Below, piece by piece: positions 3,953 to 43,352 of a stretch of DNA of 64,000 nucleotides. How positions within the stretch are numbered: the stretch's first letter is position 1; every line of letters begins with the position of its first letter. The stretch is from Bacteroidota bacterium. GTDB taxonomy: Bacteria; Bacteroidota; Bacteroidia; Bacteroidales; FEN-979. The stretch is from NCBI GenBank assembly GCA_026391775.1, contig JAPLDK010000054.1:13907-77906 (forward strand), read 5' to 3'. A program made the position numbers and the translations under genes. Below the pieces are notes generated by a model. The model was not told where the DNA came from, did not search any database, and saw only the letters and a list, made by a program, of their open reading frames with translations.

Positions 3953-3963
3953 CACTATATACT

Positions 3964-25556: not shown

Positions 25557-28500
25557 TTATATCGCCAGTCCCTTAAACAAAGTGTCGTTACGCCAATTTC
25601 CAAGGATTGCCTTGGCGGGCAGCCACACCCAAAGTATACCATTCAGAAGAAAAACCGATCCCAGCAGCGTTAAAAACAGCCCCGGGGTCTTATAGGCAGG
25701 TGAGAGGAGTGAAGGAAGGATACCGGTAAAGGCGGAAATTATGCCCAGGCATGTTCCGGCAAGCAGGATCATCAGGTGTTCGGCAAACACCAGCTTCAGA
25801 ATATATTTCCGTTTATATCCCAAAGCTATGTATAGCATGAGTTCATTCTTTCTCTCGAGCATATTCCTGAGAAGAACCAGCCCAAGTCCGAATGTGCCTA
25901 TGATCATCCCGAGCCCACCAAGCAGCATGAAGACCGAAAGGTAAGTATTCTCCACCGCGTTAAACGAAGCAAGTTTCACCGGTGCAGGCATGACACTTAT
26001 GCCATAATCCCTGAAGGCAGATTCCAGGGCTTCACGGATGCTGTCCCCGGAGGATGAGGAGCCGTCGAGAAGAAAGTTTTTAAAACCTGCCACGGAGGGA
26101 AAATGGATGCGGAAAAGGCTGTCGGAGATCAGCAGATATCCCTGGAACACCGAATTATCAAGGCCTCCCATGAGTTTTAACCCGATTTTTCCCCCGTTTT
26201 CCCCCAAGTAAAACAAGGTATCCCCGATTTTTTTCTGAAGCCCCCAGGTGATCACGGTCTGATCGGCAAAAGCTGGAATAATCTCCGGTCCCATGGATTT
26301 TTGGAGAGCCAGCCAGGGGTGGTTTTCGTCAATTCCCTTATGAAGGGCAAGAAAACTGAAGGCTCCTATACGGTTAAATGCTTCCGGGGGGATGCCGAGG
26401 ACGGAAGGCAGTGCAGCCTTGTTTAGATTGAGGCAACTGGCATCGTCACCTTCAAGCCTCTGCATTGCAACCAGACCGGCATTCCTGAAGCAGGATTCGT
26501 CCTGAAGGGCATATTCCTTTTTGCCCATGGGAGAGTCCGGATCATAACGAAGGGGTATGCTTGTCTCAGCCCAGAACCCGAAACCGCCTGTCCCGGATCG
26601 GGCATCATTCTCCGATCCATAGAAAGTCTTTTTGTTTGCTGCAGTTATGAAAATGCTGAAGGTTCCCATTGCAAGCAGGATAATAACTGTCATGGTACGG
26701 CTTCTTTTCAGGCCGGCATTCTTCAATGAAAGTGAAACGAAGCTGAAGAAAAGTTCATTGTGCGTTATCGATCTGCTGATAAGTAGGGAATTAAAAGCAA
26801 AACCTCCTCCGGCAAGCATCAGGGCCCCGGCTACCAGGGATAGGGATGAATGAATTCCCTTTAAGTCAAGCAGAAGAAATGCAGTGAACAGTATGGACCC
26901 AGAAACGAGCAGGAAGGCAAAAAGCCTGTTGAGAAAGAGTTCCCGATTTTGTTCAGCCCTGTTGTCAGAATCTATGGCAGAAGCCCTCAGCCAGGCTGGT
27001 TTCCTTAGGTTCCTGCAGAGAACGATGAGCATGAACGGAAAGGCCGTGAAAGTTCCTGCCATGGCCCCGAGGATCAGGGTTAGCGGTCTTATTTTCATTT
27101 CCAGCCCGGAGATCCCGACGGCATCCTGCCAGATAGTGTTCAGGCCAAAAAGCATAAGGCGGTTATAGAGAAGGCCGGCCAGTGCGCCCAGGATCCCTCC
27201 CGCCACAGAGAGAACAAGGCCTTCGGTGATCAGGATCCGGAAGATCTGCTGCTTTCTGAAGCCGATGGCTGACAATACTCCCGATTCTTTTATCCTGGTC
27301 TGGATATGCAGCGAAAACAACAGGGTAACCAAAAGGAGGGCCGAGAGTATTATAAAGAAACTAAGGCTTAAAAAAAGGCCGGCAAAATCCGTTGAATTGG
27401 ATGCTGAGCTTAGCCCTTCATCATAAACCGGTTTGAATACCAGCCCCTGCTGACGTGGGTTGAGTTTCTTCAGGATTGCCGGGCCGATTGTATCAAGTTT
27501 TTTTGAACTGGCGGTAAACCGGATGGATGTGAGGCTGCCGAAGGGGTTTGTCCAGAGTTTCTGACCGGCAACAATCGAGATAAAGGCTTTAGGTGTGCCA
27601 CGGTAGGCATTCCAGTAGTCCTCATCTTTTTGTCTTATCTTTTTCAGGTCTACAGGCGTACCGGTTTCCCAGTCACGGCAGTTCCCGGCTTCCGACATGC
27701 CGGGAAAGCCTGGCATCAGCGAAGGATCCCAGATAGGATCCTGCATAGGCCTGATCTGGCGGACCACAAATACCGAGCTGTCTTCACTGAGATGGCGGTG
27801 GGGGCCCATTATAAAATACTTCAGTCCCATGGAATCACCCTGCTTAATTCCCAGGTCTGCCGCCAGCCATGAATTAATAATAATTCCATCACCGCCGGGG
27901 TCTGTTCCAAGGAAATCCGGCGAAGCCCCAGTGACAAAAGAATATGGTGTTGACCTGCCGTTAAACGAAAATGAATTTACGAGGTAGGTCAGAAAAGGAT
28001 GGCTGTCAGGCAGTGTAGCCTCTACAGCTGCAGCTGTTTGATCATCGATAAAAATACGCCCCGATGTCAATTCACAGCTGGTACCCTGCTTTAGGTGTTG
28101 AATTTTCAGCCCTGCATCTTCGGGCCTCCACACCAGGCGGAGCAGGCTGTCGGGACGAAGAGCATCTGCTTTTTCAGTTTCAGCAATCAGCAGTAAGTTC
28201 GCCAGTCCTTTCAAGTCAAGAATCCCGGCCATTTTATCCAGGGAGATGAAAACCGTATAGGGGGCGGCCTGGTTATTATTCAGGCTGAACCGCCCCATCT
28301 GTTCGTCCTCCGCTATGGACTTAACCCTGAATCTTAAGCCAACCATAGCTGATTTTTCAGCAACAAACGGAGCATTGGCTGGAGCAAGACCCTGTTTGGA
28401 AACCCTGAGAAGAAAATAATCTCCGGGCTGTAAGTCAAGTTTTTCAGCTGTATTCCTGCTGATGACAGCCGTGGTTGCATCCGGGCAGGTCGCTGCCTTC

Positions 28501-28859
28501 TCCCACAGCTTTGTAAAACGCCCGTCGATCCCCAAAATCTGAACACGGTTGATCCTTCTATTGTTTTCAGGATTTACTGTTATGCCTTCGGATAGCATTG
28601 CCGGTGCTACTATGCTGCCGGTCTTAAGGCTCATATCACCGGCCAGTCCCTGGCGAAAATACCGCAGGTCGGGATGCAATGCATAGCGTATTTTCCCAAG
28701 ACGTACACTGCTGATGTGTTGAAGGCTGTACTTCACCGAATCGCCAAGTATCAAGGCGCCCGTAAGGACGGCTGTGCTGACAAGCGTCCCGGCAAGAATG
28801 GCCAGGAATACTTTCCTGTAATAACGGAAATCGAGGAGTATCAGGCGGGTGAAGTTCAT
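25557..28859 (-). CDS. Large FtsX-family ABC permease (two FtsX modules, 1100 aa)
   Basis: It has an N-terminal TM helix, then a long extracytoplasmic region, then a TM cluster, and this pattern repeats twice. The FtsX-like helices (for example LSAIGFRKQQIFRILITEGLVL and YIALGYKRKYILKLVFAEHLMIL) fit MacB/LolE/YbbP-like permeases. Its start overlaps the ATPase stop by 4 nt. Confidence 0.8.
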   Translation of the reverse strand: MNFTRLILLDFRYYRKVFLAILAGTLVSTAVLTGALILGDSVKYSLQHISSVRLGKIRYALHPDLRYFRQGLAGDMSLKTGSIVAPAMLSEGITVNPENNRRINRVQILGIDGRFTKLWEKAATCPDATTAVISRNTAEKLDLQPGDYFLLRVSKQGLAPANAPFVAEKSAMVGLRFRVKSIAEDEQMGRFSLNNNQAAPYTVFISLDKMAGILDLKGLANLLLIAETEKADALRPDSLLRLVWRPEDAGLKIQHLKQGTSCELTSGRIFIDDQTAAAVEATLPDSHPFLTYLVNSFSFNGRSTPYSFVTGASPDFLGTDPGGDGIIINSWLAADLGIKQGDSMGLKYFIMGPHRHLSEDSSVFVVRQIRPMQDPIWDPSLMPGFPGMSEAGNCRDWETGTPVDLKKIRQKDEDYWNAYRGTPKAFISIVAGQKLWTNPFGSLTSIRFTASSKKLDTIGPAILKKLNPRQQGLVFKPVYDEGLSSASNSTDFAGLFLSLSFFIILSALLLVTLLFSLHIQTRIKESGVLSAIGFRKQQIFRILITEGLVLSVAGGILGALAGLLYNRLMLFGLNTIWQDAVGISGLEMKIRPLTLILGAMAGTFTAFPFMLIVLCRNLRKPAWLRASAIDSDNRAEQNRELFLNRLFAFLLVSGSILFTAFLLLDLKGIHSSLSLVAGALMLAGGGFAFNSLLISRSITHNELFFSFVSLSLKNAGLKRSRTMTVIILLAMGTFSIFITAANKKTFYGSENDARSGTGGFGFWAETSIPLRYDPDSPMGKKEYALQDESCFRNAGLVAMQRLEGDDASCLNLNKAALPSVLGIPPEAFNRIGAFSFLALHKGIDENHPWLALQKSMGPEIIPAFADQTVITWGLQKKIGDTLFYLGENGGKIGLKLMGGLDNSVFQGYLLISDSLFRIHFPSVAGFKNFLLDGSSSSGDSIREALESAFRDYGISVMPAPVKLASFNAVENTYLSVFMLLGGLGMIIGTFGLGLVLLRNMLERKNELMLYIALGYKRKYILKLVFAEHLMILLAGTCLGIISAFTGILPSLLSPAYKTPGLFLTLLGSVFLLNGILWVWLPAKAILGNWRNDTLFKGLAI

Positions 28860-29554
28860 CCTTTTGAAATTGGCAGAAGCTTTCCGGAACCCAGTTTGTA
28901 TATCTTGTCCATCTGGCCTGCAAGTTCAGGTGAATGTGTCACAACCACAAGTGAAAGAGCTTCTTCCCGTTTCAGTGAGGCCAATAGAAGGCCGAGGCGG
29001 GCGGCAGTTTCAGCATCCAGTGAACCCGTCGGTTCGTCGGCAAGCAGCAACCTGGGCTTGTTCACAAGAGCCCTTACAACTGCCGCCCTTTGACACTCCC
29101 CCACCGAAAGCCGGGAAGGTCTCTGATGGATCAGGTCCTGCAGCCCCATGCTCTCGATAAGCCTGATAGCCCTTTCACGCCCTGCCTTGCGTGCCGCCTT
29201 GTCCTTCAGAGGCAAAACGGGAAGCAGCACGTTTTCAAGCAGGCTGAGCTGGGGCAGCAGAAAATGAAGCTGGAACACAAACCCGATGAACCCATTCCTC
29301 AGGTCTGCAAGTTCAGTCTCCTTCATGTCACTGACGTTCATCCCGTTAAGTATTACCAGGCCTGAATCAGGCCTGTCGAGGGTTCCCAGTATATTCAGCA
29401 GGGTGGTTTTTCCTGAACCGGACGGACCCGTGATAGCGATGGATTCGTTATCACCGATCTGCAGGGAGACCCCCTCGAGGACAGGCTTTTGCCGGACCGT
29501 AAGAGCCTGGTTATAGTGTTTCGTGATATCCTGAAGTTCTGCAAGCATTAACAT
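28856..29554 (-). CDS. ABC transporter ATP-binding protein (LolD/MacB-ATPase type)
   Basis: Walker A GPSGSGKTTLLN, Q-loop, signature LSVGECQRAAVVRAL, Walker B LLLADEPTGSLD, and H-loop VTHS. Confidence 0.9.
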   Translation of the reverse strand: MLMLAELQDITKHYNQALTVRQKPVLEGVSLQIGDNESIAITGPSGSGKTTLLNILGTLDRPDSGLVILNGMNVSDMKETELADLRNGFIGFVFQLHFLLPQLSLLENVLLPVLPLKDKAARKAGRERAIRLIESMGLQDLIHQRPSRLSVGECQRAAVVRALVNKPRLLLADEPTGSLDAETAARLGLLLASLKREEALSLVVVTHSPELAGQMDKIYKLGSGKLLPISKG

Positions 29555-30828
29555 ATCTTTTTATATACATCCAGTATTTTCGCCGTAAGCGAAACACAAT
29601 CAAATTTTTCTTCGACCGCTTTGCGGCCCCTGGCACTAAGTTGCATCAGCCTTTCCCGGTCATGCAGCAAAGAGGCAAGGCCGGAGGCAAGGGTTTCAGG
29701 GGTGTTAGGATGATACAGCAGCCCTCCTCCCGTTTCTTCTATTATCTCGGGAAAAGCTCCCAGGGCAGGCTGAACCAGTGGGACTCCCGATGCCAGGGCT
29801 TCCAGCTGGTACATGCCGAATGCCTCACCCTTTAAGACCGGAACTGAAAGCACAGAAACAGACTTAAAGAAATTGCCCAGGTTTTCCGGCCTGAAATCTT
29901 CAAATACCAGAATATCCTTCCCAAGCCCTGCTTTCTGCAGTTTTTTCATCTGCCGGTTAAAAAAAGGTTTATCGTCGCCGGTCATGCCGCCAGTAACATG
30001 CAGCCTGATACTTTCAAACCCCGGTTCCGATTTTAATAGTACAAATGCATCGACAAGAATTCCAAATCCGTTTTCTTCGTATATCCTGGATAAATAACCG
30101 ATTGCCAGGGGCTCCGGAGGCTCCGTATGAAATTCGTACAGGGCCGGGTTTATGCCAATGTGAACGACATTCACCTTGTCGTCGGGCAGGTGCATCTTGC
30201 TCTTCATCACGCCTGCAAAATACCGGCTTACTGCGATAAATGCATTTACGTCCACGGCCTTTTCGGCCAGCAAAGCCCAGATCTTCTCACGGTGTGGTTC
30301 ATTCATTGCATCCACCCAAACATCTTCATCCTGCAGGGAGCACACAATGGGCACCCCAACTTCCTCCTTTATCTGCAGGGCCATCCCAAGCAATAGTGCA
30401 TTTGAAAAGTGCACAACGTCGGGCTTCTCATGGTGTTTTAGAAAATGAATCAGCTGTTCCAGCTCCTTTACCTGGTGCCCATGCTTTCCCATCAGCATCG
30501 ATTCGGTTAGTTCTTCGAGCCCGTGTGCCCTGGTGGAACCCGCTTTGCCTGCAGCGAGTTTCAGCACAGGGGCGGAATTCAGCAAATGTTCCATCCAGGC
30601 TGGCATATGGCGAAGAAGAGGGAAGATCTGTTTAAGGTAGATGTTCACAGCCCCGTAAAATACAGTTGCGTCCTGCGTATCCCCGTTGATCGTCAGGGGA
30701 AGGTAAACGGGAAGTGTCATGGCATCATGGCCGGCCTTGCGAAGTGCGTTCACAAAACCCGAATCGCGCAGGCAGTTCCCGCAATAAAAGGTTCCTCCGA
30801 AGCCGGGGACTATGTTGACAATTTTCAT
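29548..30828 (-). CDS. Glycosyltransferase, GT-B fold (GT4-like)
   Basis: The C-terminal half has the GT4/GT1 signature EAFGMYQLEALASGVPLVQPALGAFPEII (E-x7-E region). The N-terminus MKIVNIVPGFGGTFYCGNCLRD is typical of a GT-B N-domain. It overlaps both neighbours, by 7 nt and by 4 nt. Confidence 0.75.
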   Translation of the reverse strand: MKIVNIVPGFGGTFYCGNCLRDSGFVNALRKAGHDAMTLPVYLPLTINGDTQDATVFYGAVNIYLKQIFPLLRHMPAWMEHLLNSAPVLKLAAGKAGSTRAHGLEELTESMLMGKHGHQVKELEQLIHFLKHHEKPDVVHFSNALLLGMALQIKEEVGVPIVCSLQDEDVWVDAMNEPHREKIWALLAEKAVDVNAFIAVSRYFAGVMKSKMHLPDDKVNVVHIGINPALYEFHTEPPEPLAIGYLSRIYEENGFGILVDAFVLLKSEPGFESIRLHVTGGMTGDDKPFFNRQMKKLQKAGLGKDILVFEDFRPENLGNFFKSVSVLSVPVLKGEAFGMYQLEALASGVPLVQPALGAFPEIIEETGGGLLYHPNTPETLASGLASLLHDRERLMQLSARGRKAVEEKFDCVSLTAKILDVYKKIC

Positions 30829-31967
30829 TTCTTCGTTTCTTTTAAAATGCCTCCAGGGCCAAAGGCATAAATGGTACCGTCTTCGGCACCCACCACAACG
30901 AGGTCACTTGTAACAGCAGGGGTACCGCTGAGCGGGCTGCCTATCTCATAAGTCCATCGTTCTGCACCGGTGCCCAGGTCGAGCAGGCGCAAACGGCCGT
31001 CGGAAGAAGCAATGACCACAAAATCTCCCGCAACAACAGGAGATGCGTCAACCTTCCCTCCGGCTTTGAATTTCCAAAGGATATCTCCATTCAGGGCATC
31101 AAAACAGATCACATTTTTATTCTGTGTCGCACTCACGACTTTCCCGTTCGAAATGGCAGGTGATGCAACGAAGGTCCCGCCAATTTCTTTTTTCCATACT
31201 TCTTTCCTTGTTTTCAGGTCCACGCAAAAGAATGCCCCGTCATAATTGCCTAAATACGCCTTATCCCCGCTGATGGCGGCAGAGGCAGGTATGTAGGTGA
31301 CCATATTTATCTTTTCGACCAGTTGGCCGCTTGCCGTATTTACGAGATGAAGAAAGCCGTCGCAACCTCCTGTCACGGCCAGGTTTCCGGCAATGGAGGG
31401 GGTCCCGTTGATGTAATTCCCCGAAGCATATTTCCAGATACCTTTACCGGTTAAGGCATCAATGCAGTGCAGGTTGAAGTCGTAGCTCCCGGCAATGATG
31501 CGCAGCTGCTTCCTGTCGGGTCCAAAAGTCCAGTTGCATGAACCTGACACCTGGCCATCGGTTATATATTTCCATTTTAAGGCCCCGCTGCCGGCGTCCA
31601 ACGCATAAATTACACCTTCCAGTGAACCGGCATAAACGGTTGAGTTCAACAGAAGGGGAGGGGCTTCAATTGTTGTGCCTGCCTTGAACTTCCACAGTAA
31701 TTTACCTTTCACCGTTATGGCATACAGATAGCCGTCATCGCAACCGATATAAATAGCACCGTTGCAGATCACGGCTGAGGATTTAATGGCATCGGTGGTT
31801 TTAAATGTCCATAAAAGTTTTAATGGTGGGTGGATGACAGCCCCGGCAAGGCCTGTAAGCTGTGCATCACCCCTGTAGGAAGGCCAGCAAGAGGATGATT
31901 TCACCTGGGCACAAACGGTGAAACAGCATACACACAGCAATAAACTAAGAATCCCGCCTTTTTTCAT
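30825..31967 (-). CDS. Secreted PQQ-like (BamB-like) beta-propeller repeat protein
   Basis: It has a signal peptide (MKKGGILSLLLCVCCFTVCAQ) and then WPSYRGD. Blade motifs of the form G-x-x-x-W-K/T recur: GKLLWKF, GALKWKY, GKGIWKY, KEVWKK, GDILWKF, GAERWTY. There is no CxxCH motif. Confidence 0.75.
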   Translation of the reverse strand: MKKGGILSLLLCVCCFTVCAQVKSSSCWPSYRGDAQLTGLAGAVIHPPLKLLWTFKTTDAIKSSAVICNGAIYIGCDDGYLYAITVKGKLLWKFKAGTTIEAPPLLLNSTVYAGSLEGVIYALDAGSGALKWKYITDGQVSGSCNWTFGPDRKQLRIIAGSYDFNLHCIDALTGKGIWKYASGNYINGTPSIAGNLAVTGGCDGFLHLVNTASGQLVEKINMVTYIPASAAISGDKAYLGNYDGAFFCVDLKTRKEVWKKEIGGTFVASPAISNGKVVSATQNKNVICFDALNGDILWKFKAGGKVDASPVVAGDFVVIASSDGRLRLLDLGTGAERWTYEIGSPLSGTPAVTSDLVVVGAEDGTIYAFGPGGILKETKK

Positions 31968-33588
31968 TGTGATTTATCTTATAAGCCAATGCCCCCGTAG
32001 GACAGGCTTCAACAACTTTCTCCCCCGTTCTGATCAATGCTTCCTTCAGCGACCCGCCAAGAGGAACACTGATACGAACGTCAAATCCCCTGCCTACGTA
32101 TGTCAATCCCTGCAATTCGCCTTCGGCCCGGGTGATTTCAACGCAGATCCCGCATTTGATGCACTTTTCAGGTTCGTAGATTACGAATTCGTGCTGAACC
32201 GATTTTATGATCTTTTTACGTTCGGGCCCTGTAAACTTTTTTTGGTACGCCTGGTATTCATTTGCATAGATCCGGAGTTTGCAGCTCACCGGTTTGCGGC
32301 AGTCGCAGTTCATGCAGCGGGCTGCTTCCTTCATCGCCTCGGCCTCCGTGAATCCCCCAATAAACCCCTTTTCCGGCTCAAGCCTGGAAAGAGAAGGGCT
32401 TTCTTTCAGGTATTCATCAAACTCGGCTTCCTTCAACCGGCCGAAGGATGAGTTGAATAACTGATGAACGCCACCGGGTTTGCCGGTTTTAAGAAAATGA
32501 TCGGCCGATAATGCTGCGGCTTTTCCCTGGGCAACCGAACGCACCGCCATCTGATGTTTGCGGATAATGTTCCCGCAGGCAAAGATCCCCCGTTGCTGAT
32601 GCGTAAGCGAATGATCATCACGTCCATCACGATCATCACTCTCATCCCGGGTTTTCGCTTCGAGCGTCGTCCTGCTTATCTTAAGGCCATACTCATCCGG
32701 TTCCAGGCCAAAGTCGTCGCTGATCTGTTTTTCTTCCCGTCCGCTGGCAATGATCACCGCATCAAATTCACGGAGCAGGACAGTGTCAAACAGTTCCTTT
32801 GTGACGAGTGTGCTCAACCTGAATTCAGCGCCCATCAATCTGACCACCTCAATCTCGGAATCCAGGACCTGCCTGGGAAGTTCATCTTCTGTGATATGGT
32901 AGCGAAGCAATCCGCCTGCTTCCTTATGCTGGTCAAAGAGGACCGCATGGTGACCGCAGCGCAGAACATAAAATGCTGCAGAAAGCCCTGCAGGACCGGT
33001 CCCGATGATGGCCACTTTTTTACCACTCTTTTCAACAGCGGGTGCAAGACCGGAATAAAGCCGGGATCCCTCATCCGCAGTACTTCTTTTTAAAAGGCAG
33101 ATCGAAACAGAACCATCTATAGATGCTCTGTGACAGGCCTTTTCGCAAGGAGCAGGACAAATATATCCGAGTGTCAATGGCAAGGCGATCTCCTCCCTTA
33201 CCACTTTCAAAGCTTCTTTGAAGCGCCCGGCGGCAATGAGCCTGTTCATTTCGGGTATGTCCATGAAAGCCGGGCAGGACCTGCGGCAGGGGGCTTCGCA
33301 GTCGCCCACATGGTCGCTGAGCAACAGCTCCAAGGCTTCGCGCCTGGCTTCATGTATCTCATGGGAATGGGTCTGTATATTCATTCCGTCCAGCACAGGA
33401 TACGCGCAGGATGGCAGGAGACGGCCGCTGTCAAGGTCTTTGACAAGGCAGACCATGCAGGAAGGATGGTGGGCTATCCCTTCACGGAAGCAAAGAGCTG
33501 GAATGGAAATGCCCAAAGAAGCAGCTGCCTGCATCAGGGTCATGCCTTCTTTTACCTCAAAGCTCTTATGGTCTATGGTTATCTGCAT
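31945..33588 (-). CDS. Fe-S flavoprotein: N-terminal [2Fe-2S] NuoG/HydA-N-like domain fused to a GltD-like NAD(P)H-binding oxidoreductase with a C-terminal ferredoxin domain
   Basis: N-terminus MQITIDHKSFEVKEGMTLMQAA...IPALCF...HPSCMVC (plant-type 2Fe-2S as in NuoG/HydA N-termini). DHVGDCEAPC and CPAPCEKAC (GltD-type clusters). KKVAIIGTGPAGLSAAFY and a second dinucleotide region. C-terminal CMNCDC... and CIKCGICVE. No H-cluster motifs (TSCCP, MPCxxK) are present. Confidence 0.8.
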   Translation of the reverse strand: MQITIDHKSFEVKEGMTLMQAAASLGISIPALCFREGIAHHPSCMVCLVKDLDSGRLLPSCAYPVLDGMNIQTHSHEIHEARREALELLLSDHVGDCEAPCRRSCPAFMDIPEMNRLIAAGRFKEALKVVREEIALPLTLGYICPAPCEKACHRASIDGSVSICLLKRSTADEGSRLYSGLAPAVEKSGKKVAIIGTGPAGLSAAFYVLRCGHHAVLFDQHKEAGGLLRYHITEDELPRQVLDSEIEVVRLMGAEFRLSTLVTKELFDTVLLREFDAVIIASGREEKQISDDFGLEPDEYGLKISRTTLEAKTRDESDDRDGRDDHSLTHQQRGIFACGNIIRKHQMAVRSVAQGKAAALSADHFLKTGKPGGVHQLFNSSFGRLKEAEFDEYLKESPSLSRLEPEKGFIGGFTEAEAMKEAARCMNCDCRKPVSCKLRIYANEYQAYQKKFTGPERKKIIKSVQHEFVIYEPEKCIKCGICVEITRAEGELQGLTYVGRGFDVRISVPLGGSLKEALIRTGEKVVEACPTGALAYKINHNEKRRDS

Positions 33589-33591
33589 GGA

Positions 33592-35946
33592 TTAGCTTAT
33601 GATGACTGCATTGACCGGGCAAACCTGCCGGCAGATATCGCATTTGATGCATTTCTCCTGATCTATGCTGTGAATCTCATAGGGTTTAAAGGCAATGGCA
33701 TCGGAGGGACAGCGCTGGGCGCATTTTGTACAGCCTATGCATTCCTCAGTGATTGAATAACTGATGATGGGCGCGCATTTTCCTGCAGGGCAATGCCCTT
33801 TAATATGGGCTTCATATTCATCACGGAAATAACGCAGGGTTGATAAAACAGGATTTGGTGCGGTTTTCCCAAGCCCGCAGAGGCTGCCTGCATGAGTGCT
33901 GTTTGCAAGATGTTCCAGCTTTTCCAGGTCTTCCGTCACACCATCACCGTTTCGTATTTTCTCAAGCAGTTCAAGCATCCTGCGGGTGCCTATGCGACAG
34001 AATGTACATTGCCCGCAGCTCTGGTTCTGGGTAAACGAAAGGAAGTAATGGGCAATATCGACCATGCAGTCATTCTCATCCAGGACGATCAGCCCACCGG
34101 ATCCCATCATGGCCCCGGCTTCCGAGAGGGCCTCGAAATCTATGGTCAGGTCTGCCATTGAAGCCGGGATACACCCGCCCGATGGGCCTCCGATCTGCAC
34201 CGCCTTAAATTGTTTGTCATTCGCAATGCCGCCTCCTATCTCTTCCACAATCTTTCGTATGCTGATGCCCATGGGGACTTCTATAAGTCCGCCCCGCTTT
34301 ACTTTCCCTGCCAGCGCAAACACCTTGGTTCCCTTGCTCCTGCCGGATCCTATACAGGCAAATGCCCCAGAACCTTTGCGGATGATCCATGAAACCAGGG
34401 AGAAGGTTTCGGTATTATTGATAAGGGTAGGTTTTCCATAGATCCCCTGAACGGCTGGATAAGGCGGGCGTAAACGGGGAATCCCCCTGTTGCCTTCAAT
34501 GGAAGCTATAAGGGCGGTTTCTTCGCCGCAAACAAAAGCGCCGGCTCCTTCGAATATTTTTATGTCAAACGAAAAACCATTGCCCATTATATTCTCCCCG
34601 AGTATTCCTTCGTTCTGGCAAACCTGCAGGGCTTCGCTTATCCTTTGCACGGCAAGGGGATATTCGGCGCGGATGTAAAACAGGCCATTGTGAGCCCCCG
34701 TTGCATAAGCCGAGATAAGCATGCCTTCTATGATGCGGTAAGGATACGATTCGAGCAGCATGCGGTCCATGAAGGCCCCGGGATCACCCTCGTCCCCATT
34801 GCAGATAATATATTTTTCAGCTGCTGCCTGGTCGTGAACCAGCTGCCATTTACGGCCTGTGGGGAATCCCGCCCCGCCGCGCCCGCGAAGGCCGCTGGCT
34901 TTAATTTCATCGATGACATCCTGGGGGCTCAAAGAGTTCAGGCATTTCTTCAGGGCTTCAAAACCCCCTGCCTTCCTGTATTCGCTGATATCGCAAGGCC
35001 TTATGATACCCCGGTTTTCTGTGGCAATATTGACCTGCGGCCCCAGGAATTCCGAGAGCGGGGTATCCCTCTGTTCGAACATATACTTCCGAAACGAGCG
35101 AGGCGCCTCATCCGCCATCATATTCTCAAACATATTCACCACCCTCGATTTAAACCTGCGATAGTTGCCTTCAGGCTTAAAATGGCTGAGTACAACCTGC
35201 TTCACTTCCTCAGGTTTGATGCGTGCATAGAATGCAGTATTTTCGCCGGGTTTGACGATCTCAAGAATAGGTACCTGGTTGCAGATGCCCACGCAGCCAA
35301 CCTGTTTTACGTCGACCAGAATCCCTGCCTCCGCCACGGTCTTTTCCAGTTCTGTTTTCACATCCTGGCTGCCGCTGGCGATACAGCAGGAGCCCAGGCC
35401 AATCCGTATTTCTCCTTTTACTGCGGATGTGGGAGCGGCGGCTAAACCGACCTTCACCAATTGTTTTCCCCGCTTCAGGAAGTCAGCCAGGATTTCCCCG
35501 GCATTTTCAGGCATCACATGGCCGTATGTAACCTGGTCAATCCGTACAACCGGGGCGAGGGTGCAGCAACCGAGGCAGGCCACCTTATCTATAGTAAAAA
35601 CCCCGGCAGCATCGGTGTTCTCGTTTTGGTTCAGCTTCATTTCCCTGCGGATTGCTTCGTAAACCAGGAGTGAACCTTTCACATGGCAGGCAGTGCCTGT
35701 ACAAACACTGATGATATGCTCACCGGTCACCTGCCTGCGGAACTGCGAATAAAAGGAAGCCACACCTTCTATGCGGGCCTGTGTAATATCAGTTACTTCA
35801 CAAGTATACCTGAGGGCTTCTTCAGGCAGATGGCTGAACTCATGCTGGATGTCCTGCAATATTGGAATGACGGCTGTAACCGGGGTGCCCCGGCTTGCGA
35901 CGATGTTGTCAACCGCCTTGTGTATAGTTTCAATATACTCTTTCAC
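33592..35946 (-). CDS. NuoE+NuoF-like fused flavoprotein (HydB/HndC/HoxF type: 2Fe-2S thioredoxin-like domains, FMN/NADH site, 4Fe-4S, C-terminal 2x[4Fe-4S] ferredoxin)
   Basis: NuoE-like region: IPILQDIQHEF...ASFYSQF...CTGTACHVKGS. Extra 2Fe-2S-like region: IRIGLGSCCIASG. NuoF signatures: GLRGRGGAGFPTGRKW, ICNGDEGDPGAFMDR, SCGQCTFCRIG. C-terminus: CIGCTKCAQRCPSDAI and CIKCDICRQVCPVNA. Confidence 0.9.
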   Translation of the reverse strand: MKEYIETIHKAVDNIVASRGTPVTAVIPILQDIQHEFSHLPEEALRYTCEVTDITQARIEGVASFYSQFRRQVTGEHIISVCTGTACHVKGSLLVYEAIRREMKLNQNENTDAAGVFTIDKVACLGCCTLAPVVRIDQVTYGHVMPENAGEILADFLKRGKQLVKVGLAAAPTSAVKGEIRIGLGSCCIASGSQDVKTELEKTVAEAGILVDVKQVGCVGICNQVPILEIVKPGENTAFYARIKPEEVKQVVLSHFKPEGNYRRFKSRVVNMFENMMADEAPRSFRKYMFEQRDTPLSEFLGPQVNIATENRGIIRPCDISEYRKAGGFEALKKCLNSLSPQDVIDEIKASGLRGRGGAGFPTGRKWQLVHDQAAAEKYIICNGDEGDPGAFMDRMLLESYPYRIIEGMLISAYATGAHNGLFYIRAEYPLAVQRISEALQVCQNEGILGENIMGNGFSFDIKIFEGAGAFVCGEETALIASIEGNRGIPRLRPPYPAVQGIYGKPTLINNTETFSLVSWIIRKGSGAFACIGSGRSKGTKVFALAGKVKRGGLIEVPMGISIRKIVEEIGGGIANDKQFKAVQIGGPSGGCIPASMADLTIDFEALSEAGAMMGSGGLIVLDENDCMVDIAHYFLSFTQNQSCGQCTFCRIGTRRMLELLEKIRNGDGVTEDLEKLEHLANSTHAGSLCGLGKTAPNPVLSTLRYFRDEYEAHIKGHCPAGKCAPIISYSITEECIGCTKCAQRCPSDAIAFKPYEIHSIDQEKCIKCDICRQVCPVNAVIIS

Positions 35947-37757
35947 TTCCCTATGCAGTATAAGTTTTTATCACCCCTGAGGAAAATATGGCCGGTCGTG
36001 AAAGCCGGGGTGCAGAATGATCCTTCTCCCAGGGGGCATTCGCTTACAGGCGAAAATTCTTTACCCGCTTTAAAAATGAACATCATTCCCTTTTTATCCA
36101 TAAGATAGATCCTTCCCTCGGCCAGCATGGGGGAGGAGTAAACGGGGTTCCCGAAATCGTGCTCCCAGTATTTGGTTCCGGAAACAGCATCATAGCATAC
36201 CGCTGTACCGTAGGAAGTGACAAGGAAAAGATATTTGTCTGTTGCCACAGGGCTTGGCACATCCGAAAGGAATTCGTTGTTTTCCCAGAGGACTTTAGGT
36301 GTTTCGCCTATCCTGACCGCCGAAAGAGTTGAATATTCGTTTACCGAAAACACGATACCATTCGCATAAGCGAGCGAAGGCCCTACTTCTCCCGATATGC
36401 AGTCGAGCTTCCAGAGTTCCTTACCGCTAAGCGGGTCGTAGGCGGCCACGCAGGGTTCGGCTGAAAGGACCAGTTCCATTCTGTTGCCAGTATTGATGAG
36501 CGATGGAGAAGCCCATGAAATTTTGACATTCCTGGAGGTTTTCCAAACCTGCTCCCCGGTCTTCCCTGAAAGACCCATCACTGCTGCGCCTCCGCGCTGG
36601 TCAAACTGAATGATGAGGACATCCCGGTACATGATGAGTGAAGAGGAATGACCGTAATGATTTGCCGGAACACCAAGATTTTTAGACCATACGGGCTTCC
36701 CGTCCATATCCAGGGCAATGAGGTCACCATTGGCAAAGATGGCGTAAACCCTGCGGCCATCGGTAGTAAGGCTGGGCGCTGCCTGACCTGTTTCCTTGCT
36801 AACCCCGGGTGCTTGTGAGGGCGAGCCCGGGATTTTTTCAACCGGAGTTTTCCAGAGCATCTTTCCTGTCACGGCATCGAGGCAGTATACTTCCCGTTTT
36901 GTTTCACTGGCCCCACTCAGGAATATCCTGTCGTTCCATATCACAGGCGAATTATAGCCGGGCAGAGGAATGTAAGTCTTCCATTTAACGTTCTTTCCGC
37001 TCCTGGCGTCCCAGCTCGTGGGAATGCTGTTGCGTTCGGTAATACCAATTCCTCCCGGGCCCCTGAAAGAAGGAAAGTTGCTCCTGATCTCCTGCCAGGA
37101 AGGATAGCTGGATGCCGGACTCTGGATGCCGGATGCAGAATCGCGTATCACGGTTGCCGAATCACGGATACCGGATGCTGGATGTGGGATGCTGGATTCA
37201 GGATGCGGGTTGGGCGATCCTGCATCCTGAATCCTGGATCCTGTTAAAGGGCTCATAGCAAACTGAAGGTCCTTTCCCATTTCGTTATGGGTGAGCCAGG
37301 CAAGAAGCAGGGTCAGAACAACCATGCCGGCCCCTGAATACATCAGCCATTTCCGTTTGTGTATCCGGATTTCCCAGAACATAACTGGTTTCCCCTGTGG
37401 TTCCTCGGGTAATTTAATCCGGATGAGCTCTATTATCTTGATACTGGATATTAGGATTAGGATGGATATGAAAAGAAGATAACCTCCGGTTCTCACCTGC
37501 CATTGTGTCGTGAAAAATGCTTTCCTGGCAAGCAGGTCCAGGGTGCGAATCTCCTGCCTTACCTGCCCGTTCTCCGGATTGTTCTGAAGCTTCTCAACCA
37601 GGGCTGTCATAGTCGTTGTATTCAGCGGATCGGCCCGTTTGATCTGGATGAAATTAACAATGATGAGAACACAGAGGACCAAGGCAAAGACCCCACTTCC
37701 GAATGAGATATTCTCAAGCAGCCTGATGGTGTTATAAGGTGATTTACCGGTCTTCAT
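35943..37757 (-). CDS. Membrane-anchored PQQ-like beta-propeller repeat protein with a low-complexity linker
   Basis: The N-terminal region has predicted TM helices (FGSGVFALVLCVLIIVNFI, GGYLLFISILILISSIKII, WLMYSGAGMVVLTLLLAWL). A Ser/Pro/Gly-rich linker follows (SPNPHPESSIPHPASGIRDSATVIRDSASGIQSPASS). Then come the propeller blades: FPSFRGPGG, GKMLWKT, GKPVWSK, GEQVWKT, GKELWKL, PKVLWEN, GTKYWEH. Confidence 0.75.
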   Translation of the reverse strand: MKTGKSPYNTIRLLENISFGSGVFALVLCVLIIVNFIQIKRADPLNTTTMTALVEKLQNNPENGQVRQEIRTLDLLARKAFFTTQWQVRTGGYLLFISILILISSIKIIELIRIKLPEEPQGKPVMFWEIRIHKRKWLMYSGAGMVVLTLLLAWLTHNEMGKDLQFAMSPLTGSRIQDAGSPNPHPESSIPHPASGIRDSATVIRDSASGIQSPASSYPSWQEIRSNFPSFRGPGGIGITERNSIPTSWDARSGKNVKWKTYIPLPGYNSPVIWNDRIFLSGASETKREVYCLDAVTGKMLWKTPVEKIPGSPSQAPGVSKETGQAAPSLTTDGRRVYAIFANGDLIALDMDGKPVWSKNLGVPANHYGHSSSLIMYRDVLIIQFDQRGGAAVMGLSGKTGEQVWKTSRNVKISWASPSLINTGNRMELVLSAEPCVAAYDPLSGKELWKLDCISGEVGPSLAYANGIVFSVNEYSTLSAVRIGETPKVLWENNEFLSDVPSPVATDKYLFLVTSYGTAVCYDAVSGTKYWEHDFGNPVYSSPMLAEGRIYLMDKKGMMFIFKAGKEFSPVSECPLGEGSFCTPAFTTGHIFLRGDKNLYCIGK

Positions 37758-37775: not shown

Positions 37776-39692
37776 TCAGGATTTCACAGGACAATAATCA
37801 ACGCATCTGGCGCAGCTGAAGCAGCGTCCTTTGTTGGTAACATAATCGGTACGGTAAACCGGCATCATGCGGCCTGCTGTCATCATCCCGAACACAAGGC
37901 CGATAAAGCCGCCGAAAAGCCATCCGCCAACATAAAATTTCTTTAATACCATGGAAGCCTCTTCATACACCTGGGCCTCAGTCTTGCCCGAGGATTTGTA
38001 TGCTTTAATCTCATATGACTCCTCTGCAACTGCAGAGTTACTGTTTGCCCCTGTTTTTTTTTCTTTAAGGTCGCTGCTTTTTGAAATTGCCAGCACCTCC
38101 TTCGCCAGCTTCACCCTGGAGTCAACGCCGGCAAGGGTTTCATGCAGCCTTGAGCCCGTGTAGCCAAACGCAAGGACCAGGAATGGGATGAGAACAGTAA
38201 GTATCATCATCTTTTTAACCATGGCCGGCCGGCTTTCAGGGCTTTTGGTTGTGACAGGGATATCGATGGCATCATAGGGACATGAATTCTCGCAGAGCCT
38301 GCATTGTATGCATTCCGAGGGGGTTATGCTGAGATGTTTCCTCGAAAAACGGCTTGTCCAGTTGAGCAGCACTCCGTATGGGCAGAGAAAGCGGCAGTAA
38401 GGCCGGGCAATGAAAACGCCGGAGAGCAGGAGGATGCCGCTGAACAGGAACATGCTGAAGGATGCGTTAAAACGGAATATTCCCACAAAAGGATCATAAC
38501 GGCAGATGATGAAATCGGTGCCGGTGGCCGCAAAAAGTACGGCAAGGCCCAGGTAAAGATAAGGGATGATGCCCAGGACAGTGTTCAGTCGTGGACCCAG
38601 CGCTTGTGGCTTGAATGCAAAGAAGTCCTGCATGGCTCCGAAAGGGCATACTGCCGCGCAAAAAGTACGGCCGAAGAAGAGCGTAAATACGAGAGGAAGG
38701 GCGAAAAAAAGAACGACACTGAGGGGTAGTATAAAAGTATTGTCGAACAGGGCCAGGCTTACATTCTGGATAGCCCCGATGGAACATACACAGCCTTCAC
38801 GGTAAAACCCGAAATATACAAGGGAGAATACACTCATGGCGAATACCCATAGCCTGGACCGTTTTTTAAGTACCAGCCAGGTGACCACTGAAAGCAAAAC
38901 GAAAAGTACAATTACATCCAGGCAGGCAAGGAATTCTCCCCGGGGAAGGGGTATCTGGGTCTGTGGCTGGGTGTATGCAGATTCGAATTCTGGCTTTGGG
39001 AAACGCTGTATCGCCATGGCGGCGGTGGAGAGCAGGGCAGCTACGCCGGTGAGGATGGCGGTCTTAGCGTTCCCGAAGCTTTTCAGCAATGAGGGTTTGT
39101 TGGCCGGTACCCGTGTAAAGGCCTGGGACGGGCAGTTCCTGGCAATGGAACATTCGTTGCAGTTCTTGCAGCAGTCGTGGCGCACCTGCAGCTGAAGGGA
39201 ACCGTTGCCGAAAGCGCCGCAGCCTTTCACGCATTTCCCGCAGCCTATGCAGAGTTCCTCGTTAACTGTATATTCGAAAAAAGGGTCTTCAATGAATTTC
39301 CGTTTAAGTGCATTGGTAGGGCAGAGCTGGTGTTCGGCTGCAGTGTCAAGGGTTTTGGTCCCCGGCTTGAAATAACCCCCGCAAAGGTCGCAATAGCCGC
39401 ACATGGCGAAGGCATGGGTGCATTTCACGGCCGAAGGGCTCATCACGCAATTGGTTGCACAGCGGCCGCATTGTATGCATCTGGCCGGATCAAGCTGCCA
39501 TACCATCTGCCTGGCTCCCATAGCAGCGGGAAGCATGCAGCTTTTTGACCTGCTGCAGCTGCTACAGTCAAAGCCGGATGAACAGGAATTTTTATCGCGT
39601 GAACGGAACAACAGTGACCCGCTGAGGAGCCCCAGGGCAGCGAGAATTCCTCCCCGCATCAAAGTATTTAAAAATTCACGCCTGTTTGGCAT
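37776..39692 (-). CDS. Tat-signal polyferredoxin membrane protein (NapG-like periplasmic ferredoxin domain fused to a NapH/NosH-like membrane core with cytoplasmic 4Fe-4S domains)
   Basis: Twin-arginine N-terminus MPNRREFLNTLMRGGILAALGLL. Ferredoxin motifs CIQCGRCATNC, CDLCGG, CIGCGKCVKGC, CKNCNEC lie before the first TM block. The membrane core has NapH-type motifs: REGCVCS, FCAAVCPFG, YCRFLCPYG. Then CIQCRLCENSCPYDAI, two further TM helices, and a terminal CFSCARCVDYCP. Confidence 0.8.
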   Translation of the reverse strand: MPNRREFLNTLMRGGILAALGLLSGSLLFRSRDKNSCSSGFDCSSCSRSKSCMLPAAMGARQMVWQLDPARCIQCGRCATNCVMSPSAVKCTHAFAMCGYCDLCGGYFKPGTKTLDTAAEHQLCPTNALKRKFIEDPFFEYTVNEELCIGCGKCVKGCGAFGNGSLQLQVRHDCCKNCNECSIARNCPSQAFTRVPANKPSLLKSFGNAKTAILTGVAALLSTAAMAIQRFPKPEFESAYTQPQTQIPLPRGEFLACLDVIVLFVLLSVVTWLVLKKRSRLWVFAMSVFSLVYFGFYREGCVCSIGAIQNVSLALFDNTFILPLSVVLFFALPLVFTLFFGRTFCAAVCPFGAMQDFFAFKPQALGPRLNTVLGIIPYLYLGLAVLFAATGTDFIICRYDPFVGIFRFNASFSMFLFSGILLLSGVFIARPYCRFLCPYGVLLNWTSRFSRKHLSITPSECIQCRLCENSCPYDAIDIPVTTKSPESRPAMVKKMMILTVLIPFLVLAFGYTGSRLHETLAGVDSRVKLAKEVLAISKSSDLKEKKTGANSNSAVAEESYEIKAYKSSGKTEAQVYEEASMVLKKFYVGGWLFGGFIGLVFGMMTAGRMMPVYRTDYVTNKGRCFSCARCVDYCPVKS

Positions 39693-43311: not shown

Positions 43312-43344
43312 AAAAACAGCAGTTTGAATAGGTGGATTGTTCTT

Positions 43345-43352
43345 CAAAATTA
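43345..43352 (-). promoter_or_regulatory. -7 promoter box TAATTTTG for the 11-gene minus-strand cluster
   Basis: The plus strand reads caaaatta. It lies 34 nt upstream of the ATG at 43311 and would fall inside the coding region if the TTG at 43347 were the true start. Confidence 0.35.

Follow-up and report, generated by a model that had tools for sequence, protein, structure and literature searches.

Work on anaerobic bioenergetics is currently much concerned with the Bfu family, whose members are known to use H2, formate, nicotinamide adenine dinucleotide phosphate (NADP(H)), or aldehydes as third substrate; several more such substrates have been predicted. The members closest to the system described here are NfnABC (Nfn-Bfu) of Caldicellulosiruptor saccharolyticus (Csac; PDB 9bov/9bp5) and Thermococcus sibiricus (Tsib; 9n5u/9n5v) and StnABC of Sporomusa ovata (Sov; 8oh5/8oh9), characterized NADH/ferredoxin:NADP+ transhydrogenases whose third subunit is NfnA or StnC (PMC7483475, PMC9304861, PMC10482914, PMC11829005, PMC12018979). 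The functional wire of Stn runs from flavin adenine dinucleotide (FAD) through C7-C6-C5-C4-C3, with the FdhF domain off the path (PMC10482914), and membrane-bound Bfu enzymes (Mbh-Bfu, Nuo-Bfu) have already been predicted (PMC9304861). Here we describe a gene pair in a 64,000-nucleotide (nt) stretch, hereafter the window, of a Bacteroidales genome (GenBank GCA_026391775.1, contig JAPLDK010000054.1, positions 13,907 to 77,906), encoding a fusion of BfuC to BfuB (BfuCB) and a short form of BfuA. The pair is a real, widespread, and unannotated variant of a known enzyme family. We think it probable that it is a Bfu module derived from NfnABC/Stn and that it serves as the cytoplasmic head, linked to NAD(H) and ferredoxin, of a conduit carrying electrons across the membrane. 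The observations that we bring to this reading are the domain content of the two proteins, a deletion in BfuA, the conservation of cofactor ligands, and the synteny and co-occurrence of the neighboring genes.

The deletion in BfuA (547 amino acids, aa) is what separates this protein from the known enzyme. Both open reading frames (ORFs) of the pair were found where the initial annotation had placed them, on the minus strand, and that account left out the closest characterized relatives, NfnABC and StnABC. The best PDB sequence matches of BfuA are 9bov, 9n5u, and 8oh5, the same three complexes as for BfuCB, with E values of 1e-77 to 1e-85 against NfnA/StnC, as compared with 1e-27 to 1e-32 against 4ylf_B and 5jca_L, which match only aa ~100-285. 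Foldseek likewise returned 9bov_A, 8oh5_C, and 9n5u_A as top matches, for a query that was a poor AlphaFold2 (AF2) model. When aligned with 9bov_A, BfuA aa 2-284 correspond to residues 5-287 and aa 331-535 to residues 463-672. Residues 288-462 (~175 aa), the second Rossmann fold with GQRVLVVGGGNTAMD that binds NADPH, have no counterpart in BfuA, and neither do residues 673-1178, the ~500-aa formate dehydrogenase (FDH)/FdhF-like domain. The canonical NfnA encoded elsewhere in the same genome gives the same picture: in a motif-anchored multiple alignment, the span from the 'ATG' to the 'GD' motif is 193 aa in NfnA, including GRTIAVVGGGNTAMD, versus 52 aa in BfuA, and the tail after the last NuoG-type cluster is 545 aa versus 12 aa. 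Consistent with this, Pyr_redox_2 (PF07992) covers aa 190-285 of BfuA, which are profile positions 1-110 of 291 only. The initial annotation had read VAIIGTGPAGLSAAFY as an FAD/NAD(P)H domain of GltD type. The FAD-binding Rossmann fold holds, with IGTGPAG at aa 195, GxGxxG at 196-201, D219, G225/G226, 'ATG' at 281-283, and F336..G339-N340, while the NADPH-binding Rossmann fold is missing.

The remainder of BfuA follows the order of its relatives. The protein does begin like HydA/NuoG, as had been proposed, with a Fer2_4 [2Fe-2S] domain at aa 2-75, and its N-terminus is also matched by NF040763 and TIGR01973 from NCBIfam. The GltD/NfnL-type domain carries the ligands H93, C97, C101, C105, C144, C148, C152, and C164, the last of which varies across the wider family. 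The NuoG-type region is recognized as Fer4_Nqo3 (PF22117) at aa 470-534, and as PF00037, and aligns with 9bov_A residues 560-672. This architecture, with a [2Fe-2S] N-domain, an inserted GltD/NfnL-like 2x[4Fe-4S] and FAD unit, and NuoG-type clusters, has a precedent, being that of NfnA/StnC. NfnAB/NfnSL and GltD (4ylf, 5jca, 2vdc) are homologous to BfuA in the Fer4_20 2x[4Fe-4S] domain and the first FAD Rossmann fold. BfuA differs from them in lacking both the NADPH subdomain and an NfnA/NfnS partner, no gene for a small FNR-like subunit of that kind being present in the gene row according to the ORF list, Pfam, and NCBIfam, and in having added NuoG-type domains.

Two other readings were set aside. 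A BLASTP pairing of the FAD Rossmann fold of the window protein with the NADPH Rossmann fold of its paralogue is an artifact of internal Rossmann similarity, and an origin as a pseudogene or by frameshift does not agree with an intact frame, a large family, and conserved ligands. The linker that stands in place of the missing subdomain is ~25-30 aa in most family members, versus 52 aa in the window copy. Its predicted local distance difference test (pLDDT) score is below 50, in an AF2 model of BfuA that is poor as a whole (pLDDT 59). Within the linker, the acidic low-complexity insert AKTRDESDDRDGRDDHSLTHQQ (32599-32664, minus strand; aa 309-330) is shared with the closest relatives only and is absent from most of the family. 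Its length is variable, reaching ~60 aa in one homologue (P0019).

Short BfuA proteins form a large family. More than 100 clusters share 54-79% identity with the window protein, all of them ~510-590 aa long, and the linker is short in 139 of the 150 nearest 50%-identity cluster representatives (36-52% identical) and long in 12. At least 548 species-level genomes matched the search pattern. Among the 139 short forms, each of the cysteines C33/44/47/61, C97/101/105/144/148/152, C425/428/430/436, and C476/479/482/529 is kept in 136-139. GxGxxG is kept in 138-139, the beta2 acid (D/E) in 135, and GG in 135-137. Since this ADP-binding fingerprint is kept as strictly as the cysteine ligands, a dinucleotide, most likely FAD, is probably still bound by BfuA, in what would be an altered pocket: the acid of the GD motif is relaxed in the short forms (S/G/N/D) and is D/E in 10 of the 12 long ones. 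Three short-linker homologues (P0130, P0131, and P0139) have C-terminal extensions of 378-615 aa and may be intermediates that lost the NADPH fold and kept or gained a C-terminal domain. Short BfuA proteins are currently labeled 'NADPH-dependent glutamate synthase beta subunit-like', 'FAD-dependent oxidoreductase', or 'NAD(P)-binding protein'.

BfuCB (784 aa) shows the complete set of bifurcating-type sites. Pfam and NCBIfam scans covered the first nine genes of the row that contains the pair, and a scan for hydrophobic segments covered all eleven. Pfam matches in BfuCB are 2Fe-2S_thioredx (NuoE; PF01257, aa 13-155, E 1e-45), Complex1_51K (PF01512, aa 348-518, E 3e-44), NADH_4Fe-4S (PF10589, aa 630-714, E 2e-32), and, at the C-terminus, Fer4_21 (PF14697, aa 734-781) and PF00037. 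The SLBB domain is matched weakly only (24 bits versus a cut-off of 27), and the NuoF core also matches TIGR01959 (nuoF_fam) at aa 318-715 (E 6e-144). The motif set of a bifurcating NADH-binding subunit, which had been claimed for this protein, is present in full, with GGAGFPTGRKW at aa 357 and SCGQCTFCRIG at aa 643, and the NuoE-like [2Fe-2S] and C-terminal 2x[4Fe-4S] domains are borne out by Pfam. The domain at aa 179-260 has its counterpart in residues 2-78 of both Csac NfnB and Sov StnB in the alignments, and H714/C719/C724, which precede the C-terminal ferredoxin domain, align with the CPAxxC Zn (B2) region of NfnB (9bov_B, 9n5u_B). Among 71 orthologues, the C1 cysteines, those of aa 179-260, the eight C-terminal cysteines, and H714/C719/C724 are at least 95% conserved. 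The NuoE-like domain shares 34% identity with NfnC, which is a separate protein in this genome, and 67 of 70 orthologues retain the fusion of BfuC to BfuB. In Csac NfnABC, the N-domain of NfnC occupies a cleft between the FdhF-like domain and NfnB (PMC11829005), and the fusion may make up for the loss of that cleft.

These ligands bear on whether the pair could be a plain, non-bifurcating NADH dehydrogenase head. In such a head the wire would take its electrons from NADH only, with the ferredoxin-type domain acting as no more than a relay and BfuA as a structural Fe-S adaptor whose flavin site is vestigial. Non-bifurcating HydBC homologues do exist, and the B2-B5 sites tell bifurcating BfuB proteins from non-bifurcating homologues of the NuoF/HoxF type (PMC9304861). 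The GD-motif acid that is not conserved in short forms would fit such an adaptor. However, the B2-B5-type sites absent from non-bifurcating homologues (PMC9304861) are all at least 95% conserved in BfuCB, where the thioredoxin-like cysteine set, H714/C719/C724, and both CxxCxxCxxxC motifs align with NfnB/StnB, and GxGxxG, the beta2 acid, and GG are as strict as the cysteine ligands in 135-139 of the 139 clusters. We therefore regard a non-bifurcating head as very unlikely.

By the published domain definition (PMC9304861), the pair belongs to the Bfu family: the flavin mononucleotide (FMN)/NAD(H) site and [4Fe-4S] cluster of NuoF, the ferredoxin-type domain, BfuC, and the [2Fe-2S] and 4Fe-4S clusters of BfuA are present, and SLBB is weak. 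The placement in the HydABC-like family that had been suggested agrees with this, the BfuB part having every domain of the family definition. The HydABC [FeFe]- and [NiFe]-hydrogenases (7q4v, 8a6t, 7p5h, 7t2r) share the BfuBC core and the HydA-type [2Fe-2S] N-domain, and plausibly also the logic of the pair, the joint disposal of NADH and reduced ferredoxin, but the window pair is without an H-cluster or NiFe subunit. In agreement with the initial annotation, the H-cluster motifs TSCCP and MPCxxKxxE occur in none of the six frames of the whole window, and there is no Fe-hydrogenase or molybdopterin family match that would indicate a hydrogenase or formate dehydrogenase catalytic domain. The profile scans of the gene row turned up no overlooked H-cluster or molybdenum-bis(pyranopterin guanine dinucleotide) (Mo-bisPGD) domain: PF02906, the H-cluster domain, has no Pfam match in the row, no molybdopterin family is among the Pfam and NCBIfam matches of the nine proteins scanned, and the precomputed Pfam assignments for orthologues of the remaining two, an ATP-binding cassette (ABC) ATPase and an FtsX permease, show only ABC_tran and FtsX-type families and no molybdopterin family.

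The best PDB matches of BfuCB are Csac NfnB (9bov_B, 701 bits), Tsib NfnB (9n5u_B, 696 bits), and Sov StnB (8oh5_B, 679 bits), as compared with 563-637 bits for the HydB subunits of NiFe- and FeFe-hydrogenases and for 9mqx_B. We built a maximum-likelihood tree of the BfuB core from 17 cluster orthologues, five same-genome paralogues, and five PDB chains, with the PDB sequences copied from printed alignments. The window-type BfuB proteins form one clade with 100/100 support on a stem of 0.84, apart from Csac/Sov NfnB, Tsib NfnB, the NfnB of contig C47 of the same genome (48% identical to the window BfuB), NiFe-HydB, and FeFe-HydB, in a tree whose backbone lacks resolution. The pair is thus not nested within a characterized enzyme, a point on which a phylogeny had been called for. 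All the same, BfuA makes its Nfn-Bfu ancestry clear.

Contig C47 carries a canonical operon in which the 1239-aa NfnA has an intact NADPH Rossmann fold and an FDH-like tail, so that the organism has both a standard transhydrogenase and a truncated paralogue. All H-domain matches of the genome are on another contig, C51, where three of them adjoin HydB-like (NuoF-type) genes. At ~93-122 kb of this contig, six Fe-hydrogenase H-domain matches and three NuoF-like genes lie within ~30 kb and have the look of several adjacent gene sets for HydABC-type hydrogenases, with one H-domain protein of 1104 aa among them (L084:1118-4432, minus strand; the stretch spans L084 and L085).

One could still take the pair for a regular transhydrogenase of the Nfn-Bfu/Stn type (NADH + reduced ferredoxin : NADP+) whose neighbors are incidental. 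NfnABC and StnABC are, after all, the best PDB matches, and BfuA is hit by the NCBIfam model PRK12814, 'putative NADPH-dependent glutamate synthase small subunit', but at 391 bits versus a cut-off of 916. Against this stand the absence of the NADPH Rossmann subdomain throughout the family, the complete NfnCBA operon in the same genome, the separate BfuB clade, and a synteny and co-occurrence with NapGH and propeller genes that extends across phyla (below). We consider this explanation extremely improbable. The pair falls outside the Nfn-Bfu/Stn transhydrogenases, because two of their defining features, a fold that binds NADP(H) and an FdhF-like domain, were tested for and are absent. In BfuB domain set, cluster ligands, and BfuC fold it is like NfnABC/StnABC. 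It differs in the lack of these two domains, of which the second holds the off-path clusters and the tetramer interface in Stn, in the fusion of BfuC to BfuB, and in a membrane and periplasmic operon context, whereas NfnABC/StnABC are stand-alone.

That context is an eleven-gene tight row on the minus strand, running from 43347 down to 25557, in which stop and start codons overlap or lie 1-18 nt apart (Table 1). The gene for BfuCB overlaps the gene upstream of it by 4 nt. The initial annotation had described the surroundings as genes for extracytoplasmic proteins, which agrees with the signal or anchor segments, the PQQ_2 and NHL propeller families, the twin-arginine translocation (Tat) motif, and the ~7 hydrophobic segments found in them. 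One conserved neighbor is a 638-aa protein resembling NapG fused to NapH. It is matched by Fer4_5 (Pfam) and by NapH/NosR models of NCBIfam, including NF007013, and has an RREFL Tat motif, a NapG-like four-cluster domain, and ~7 hydrophobic segments that come with two CxxxCP motifs of the NapH type, as well as a ferredoxin motif and another cluster motif at its end. Four CxxCxxCxxxC motifs were counted in this protein. Cysteine clusters lie on either side of the hydrophobic segments. The Tat signal, the four-cluster domain, the CxxxCP motifs, and the cytoplasmic-type ferredoxin domain are shared with NapGH/NosGH (and NosR, RdhC, CcoG). The window protein differs from these in that its G and H parts are fused (they are split in most relatives), in its extra C-terminal segments and fourth cluster motif, and in being linked to a cytoplasmic Bfu module and not to nitrate or nitrous-oxide reductase genes. 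We know of no described NapGH/NosGH system linked to a cytoplasmic Bfu module.

Table 1. Features of the gene row, the domains of BfuCB and BfuA, and the canonical operon of the same genome (positions are those of the window unless a contig is named).
Feature	Position	Strand	Details
PQQ_2 propeller, signal-anchored	42094-43347	-	417 aa; Pfam
PQQ_2 propeller, signal-anchored	40665-42092	-	475 aa; Pfam
NHL propeller, anchored	39697-40659	-	Pfam
Tat-signal NapG-like polyferredoxin fused to NapH/NosR-like membrane Fe-S protein	37776-39692	-	638 aa
PQQ_2 beta-propeller, membrane-anchored	35943-37757	-	604 aa; 3 hydrophobic segments; translationally coupled to BfuCB
BfuCB: BfuC-BfuB fusion (NuoE-like + HydB/NuoF-like NAD(H)/FMN subunit)	33592-35946	-	784 aa; GTG start
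BfuCB: NuoE/BfuC-like thioredoxin-fold domain	35482-35910	-	aa 13-155; C1 [2Fe-2S] ligands C82, C87, C124, C127/C128
BfuCB: HydB N-terminal thioredoxin-like domain, B5 site	35167-35412	-	aa 179-260; C187/C188/C218/C222
BfuCB: NuoF core, NAD(H)/FMN site and B1 [4Fe-4S]	33802-34995	-	aa 318-715; C644/C647/C650/C690
BfuCB: C-terminal 2x[4Fe-4S] ferredoxin domain (B3/B4)	33595-33768	-	PF14697, aa 734-781
Short BfuA, NfnA/StnC homologue without NADPH subdomain and without FDH-like tail	31945-33588	-	547 aa
BfuA: N-terminal [2Fe-2S] domain, HydA/NuoG type	33364-33585	-	PF13510, aa 2-75; C33/C44/C47/C61, invariant
BfuA: GltD/NfnL-type 2x[4Fe-4S] domain	33070-33300	-	PF14691 (Fer4_20), aa 97-173, E 1e-15
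BfuA: FAD-binding half of GltD fold	32479-33021	-	aa 190-370
BfuA: linker in place of NADPH Rossmann subdomain	32584-32739	-	52 aa, aa 284-335
BfuA: NuoG-type cluster region	31984-32331	-	aa 420-535; C425/C428/C430/C436 + H466, C476/C479/C482/C529; cysteines kept in 137-139 of 139 clusters
Downstream genes: PQQ_2 propeller (380 aa), GT4 glycosyltransferase, ABC ATPase, FtsX permease (1100 aa)	25557-31967	-	overlapping stop/start codons
NfnC, canonical operon	contig C47 (L003), 8527-9045	-	172 aa
NfnB, canonical operon	contig C47 (L003), 6746-8521	-	591 aa
NfnA, canonical operon	contig C47 (L003), 3006-6725	-	1239 aa

The gene row is conserved. It is syntenic, gene for gene, in 80 loci from metagenome-assembled genomes (MAGs) of Bacteroidales/Bacteroidota, wherever the contig is long enough, and BfuCB is its best conserved member (62-87% identity in the 80 loci). 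Using distant short forms as the query, we found further loci (BfuA 39-45%, BfuCB 53-59% identity) in which a core is kept that consists of the propellers, the NHL protein, NapG and NapH, the anchored propeller, BfuCB, and BfuA. The tail of the row (380-aa propeller, GT4, ABC, FtsX) is linked in Bacteroidales and often missing or moved in these distant loci. By source names, the larger distant group is Planctomycetota (Sedimentisphaerales), and the relatives of the smaller one are Aminicenantes, Zixibacteria, Latescibacterota, KSB1, and Acidobacteriota. The NapGH-like partner is syntenic in two phylum-level groups. Short BfuA as a whole, again by source names, occurs in Bacteroidota, Planctomycetota, Aminicenantes/Acidobacteriota, Zixibacteria, Latescibacterota, and KSB1. 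Taxonomic labels were taken from the MAG records. Three MAG contigs at 52-62% identity are labeled 'Alphaproteobacteria' (L014), 'Chlorobiota' (L067), and 'Rikenella' (L068), possibly through binning or labeling errors, and we did not use them for the spread.

Three loci in which the row seemed to be split (L029, L077, and L066) are rearrangements and were rejected as exceptions to linkage, since each of the three genomes has its NapGH orthologue, either close by or on a different contig. At one of them, L029 (1335-7637, plus strand; a Bacteroidales MAG), TonB-dependent-receptor-like, DUF4249, and MG2-domain proteins lie directly upstream of BfuCB; this three-protein insert replaces the anchored propeller, and NapGH is ~3 kb further on. 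Elsewhere, a metagenome contig (L170) has tandem BfuCB genes (5146-7605 and 7602-10004, plus strand; 53% and 52% identical) upstream of one short BfuA, and at L154 (6095-9946, plus strand) the BfuCB homologue lies in a 1283-aa frame, which either reflects fusion to the gene upstream or was called too long.

Co-occurrence was examined in one genome from each of 81 Bacteroidales families, with a threshold of E<=1e-60 for BfuA. Short BfuA was found in 12 of these genomes and the 475-aa propeller in 15, the propeller being present in all 12 BfuA-positive genomes versus 3 of 69 BfuA-negative ones (Fisher p = 6e-12). This co-occurrence is independent of adjacency, because both genes are present though unlinked in two BfuA-positive genomes (G029 and G068), where they lie on different contigs or 70 kb apart. 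The neighbors of the pair, a NapG/NapH-like conduit and propellers, are therefore partners that are conserved and inherited along with it, and do not stand beside it by chance.

The 475-aa protein is the best conserved propeller of the row, with 58-85% identity in Bacteroidales and 41-60% in the distant loci. Its AF2 model (pLDDT 89) has an 8-bladed, BamB-like fold, and Foldseek returned generic 8-bladed propellers only (BamB, tetrathionate hydrolase 6l8a, pyrroloquinoline quinone [PQQ] dehydrogenases) at 13-16% identity. The highest query template modeling (TM) score is that of tetrathionate hydrolase 6l8a, 0.59-0.61 at 13-14% identity, and no function can be taken from such generic matches. 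Conserved residues of this propeller are H112, H160, H257, C138, C185, C215, C238, and C468. In the NHL propeller, C244 and C245 of an FCGCCNPSH motif are at least 95% conserved (47 orthologues), as are H123 and H216, and C242 is not. The glycosyltransferase family 4 (GT4) protein (29548-30828, minus strand) has a CxxC pair, C16 and C19 in GGTFYCGNCLRD, within the N-terminal glycine-rich loop, at least 95% conserved in 57 orthologues. GT4 enzymes do not usually have such a pair, which may serve as a metal or redox site. The ABC ATPase and FtsX permease were named from their own sequences and the precomputed Pfam assignments (ABC_tran, FtsX) of orthologues at L001 and L002.

How might the pair and its partners work together? 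BfuCB keeps the NAD(H)/FMN site, the B1 and C1 clusters of the proposed bifurcating 'flavobicluster', and the Zn and B5 sites, together with the C-terminal 2x[4Fe-4S] domain, which is ferredoxin-binding in characterized relatives. BfuA retains no more than the linear, on-pathway wire of StnC/NfnA, made up of a [2Fe-2S] cluster, two NuoG-type and two GltD-type [4Fe-4S] clusters, and a terminal FAD half-domain; the off-path FdhF clusters and the tetramer or oligomerization interface are gone. Deletion of the NADPH Rossmann subdomain excludes NADP(H) as third substrate and leaves the flavin end of the wire open to another partner; we infer that it docks on the cytoplasmic Fe-S face of the NapG/NapH-like protein. 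NADH and reduced ferredoxin could then be confurcated, much as in HydABC making H2, with electrons passing onto NapGH, on to its Tat-exported periplasmic cluster domain, and finally to the membrane-anchored beta-propeller and NHL proteins. The direction and the use of ferredoxin are conjectural in this scheme, and electrons could also run in reverse. Outward flow is favored because the carriers are fermentative anaerobes, because six H-cluster domain matches on one contig, three of them next to HydB-like genes, indicate that the organism has to get rid of NADH and reduced ferredoxin, and because there is no recognizable periplasmic dehydrogenase cofactor domain.

The last point also bears on inward flow, in which a substrate would be oxidized in the periplasm at the propeller/NHL proteins and electrons would pass through NapGH to BfuA, with BfuCB bifurcating to NAD+ and ferredoxin like H2-consuming HydABC. 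The same linkage evidence applies to this scheme, and characterized Bfu enzymes are reversible (PMC9304861, PMC10482914). It would, however, need a donor potential near -400 mV and a dehydrogenase cofactor, while the propellers match PQQ_2/BamB-type repeats only and the anaerobic carriers are unlikely to make PQQ, and we regard it as quite unlikely.

A further possibility is that the exposed FAD of BfuA directly reduces menaquinone, or another two-electron acceptor such as a disulfide or polysulfide, at the membrane surface, and that the NapGH-like protein reoxidizes the quinol for the periplasmic proteins with no Fe-S to Fe-S contact. An FAD that ends a one-electron wire is a classical one-electron/two-electron converter. 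The role ascribed to NapH homologues is that of quinol dehydrogenases, and the 638-aa protein matches NF007013. Quinone is also the proposed third substrate of Nuo-Bfu (PMC9304861). However, neither BfuA nor BfuCB has a membrane-spanning segment in the hydrophobic-segment scan, which does not extend to amphipathic helices; the sole 19-residue window above the cut-off, BfuCB aa 116-134, lies within the NuoE-like domain around the C1 [2Fe-2S] ligands. No quinone-site family was matched in Pfam or NCBIfam, the relaxed GD acid is unusual for a catalytic flavin site, and the genes of the pair are so closely coupled in translation to those of the anchored propeller and NapGH that a single complex is suggested. 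An NADH/ferredoxin:menaquinone oxidoreductase thus seems rather unlikely.

Several observations count against our preferred reading, that of a cytoplasmic head docked on a transmembrane conduit. NapH-type proteins are held to be quinol dehydrogenases, so that the conduit could draw on the menaquinol pool without the Bfu module. The proposed docking of BfuA on NapH draws on gene linkage, and the AF2 model of BfuA is uninformative on the exposed face. The GD acid is not conserved in short forms, so that some family members could bind flavin in an altered way or no longer bind it. The third substrate of a true Bfu enzyme should lie near -400 mV, and a periplasmic couple of that kind cannot be identified. 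The propellers show a generic fold like that of BamB or tetrathionate hydrolase only. Finally, three genomes of the family sample have the 475-aa propeller without a BfuA at E<=1e-60.

It is possible, and we put this forward tentatively, that the pair represents an undescribed membrane-coupled Bfu class, defined by confurcation of NADH and reduced ferredoxin onto an NADP-blind wire of the NfnA type, a NapG/NapH conduit, and periplasmic reduction at membrane-anchored propeller and NHL proteins. Mbh-Bfu and Nuo-Bfu likewise have a BfuABC module in a membrane-protein operon and are proposed to plug NADH and ferredoxin into a membrane complex (PMC9304861). The window pair differs in that its partner is a NapG/NapH-type Fe-S protein with exported propellers and not a proton pump of the complex-I/Mbh type, and in that its BfuA is of the NfnA type with half a flavin domain. 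The Bfu, Stn, and Nfn papers make no mention of a form without the NADPH domain, and we found no description of the gene combination (NapGH, PQQ, NuoEF, GltD) in the searchable full-text literature.

What is new is an abundant lineage that keeps a complete bifurcating core and an NfnA wire, has discarded the nicotinamide site, and shares its inheritance with exported propellers and an Fe-S conduit through the membrane. A domain-based survey could miscount these short forms as Nfn-Bfu transhydrogenases, which they cannot be. If the coupling is real, flavin-based bifurcation or confurcation would reach into extracytoplasmic chemistry, conduits of the NapH/NosR type would gain NADH/ferredoxin as a cytoplasmic donor, and a periplasmic redox reaction would be indicated in widespread anaerobes of sediments and lakes. 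If the proposed electron path is true, it would provide anaerobic polymer degraders with a hydrogen-independent outlet for fermentative reducing power and represent a new, respiration-like route of electron export.

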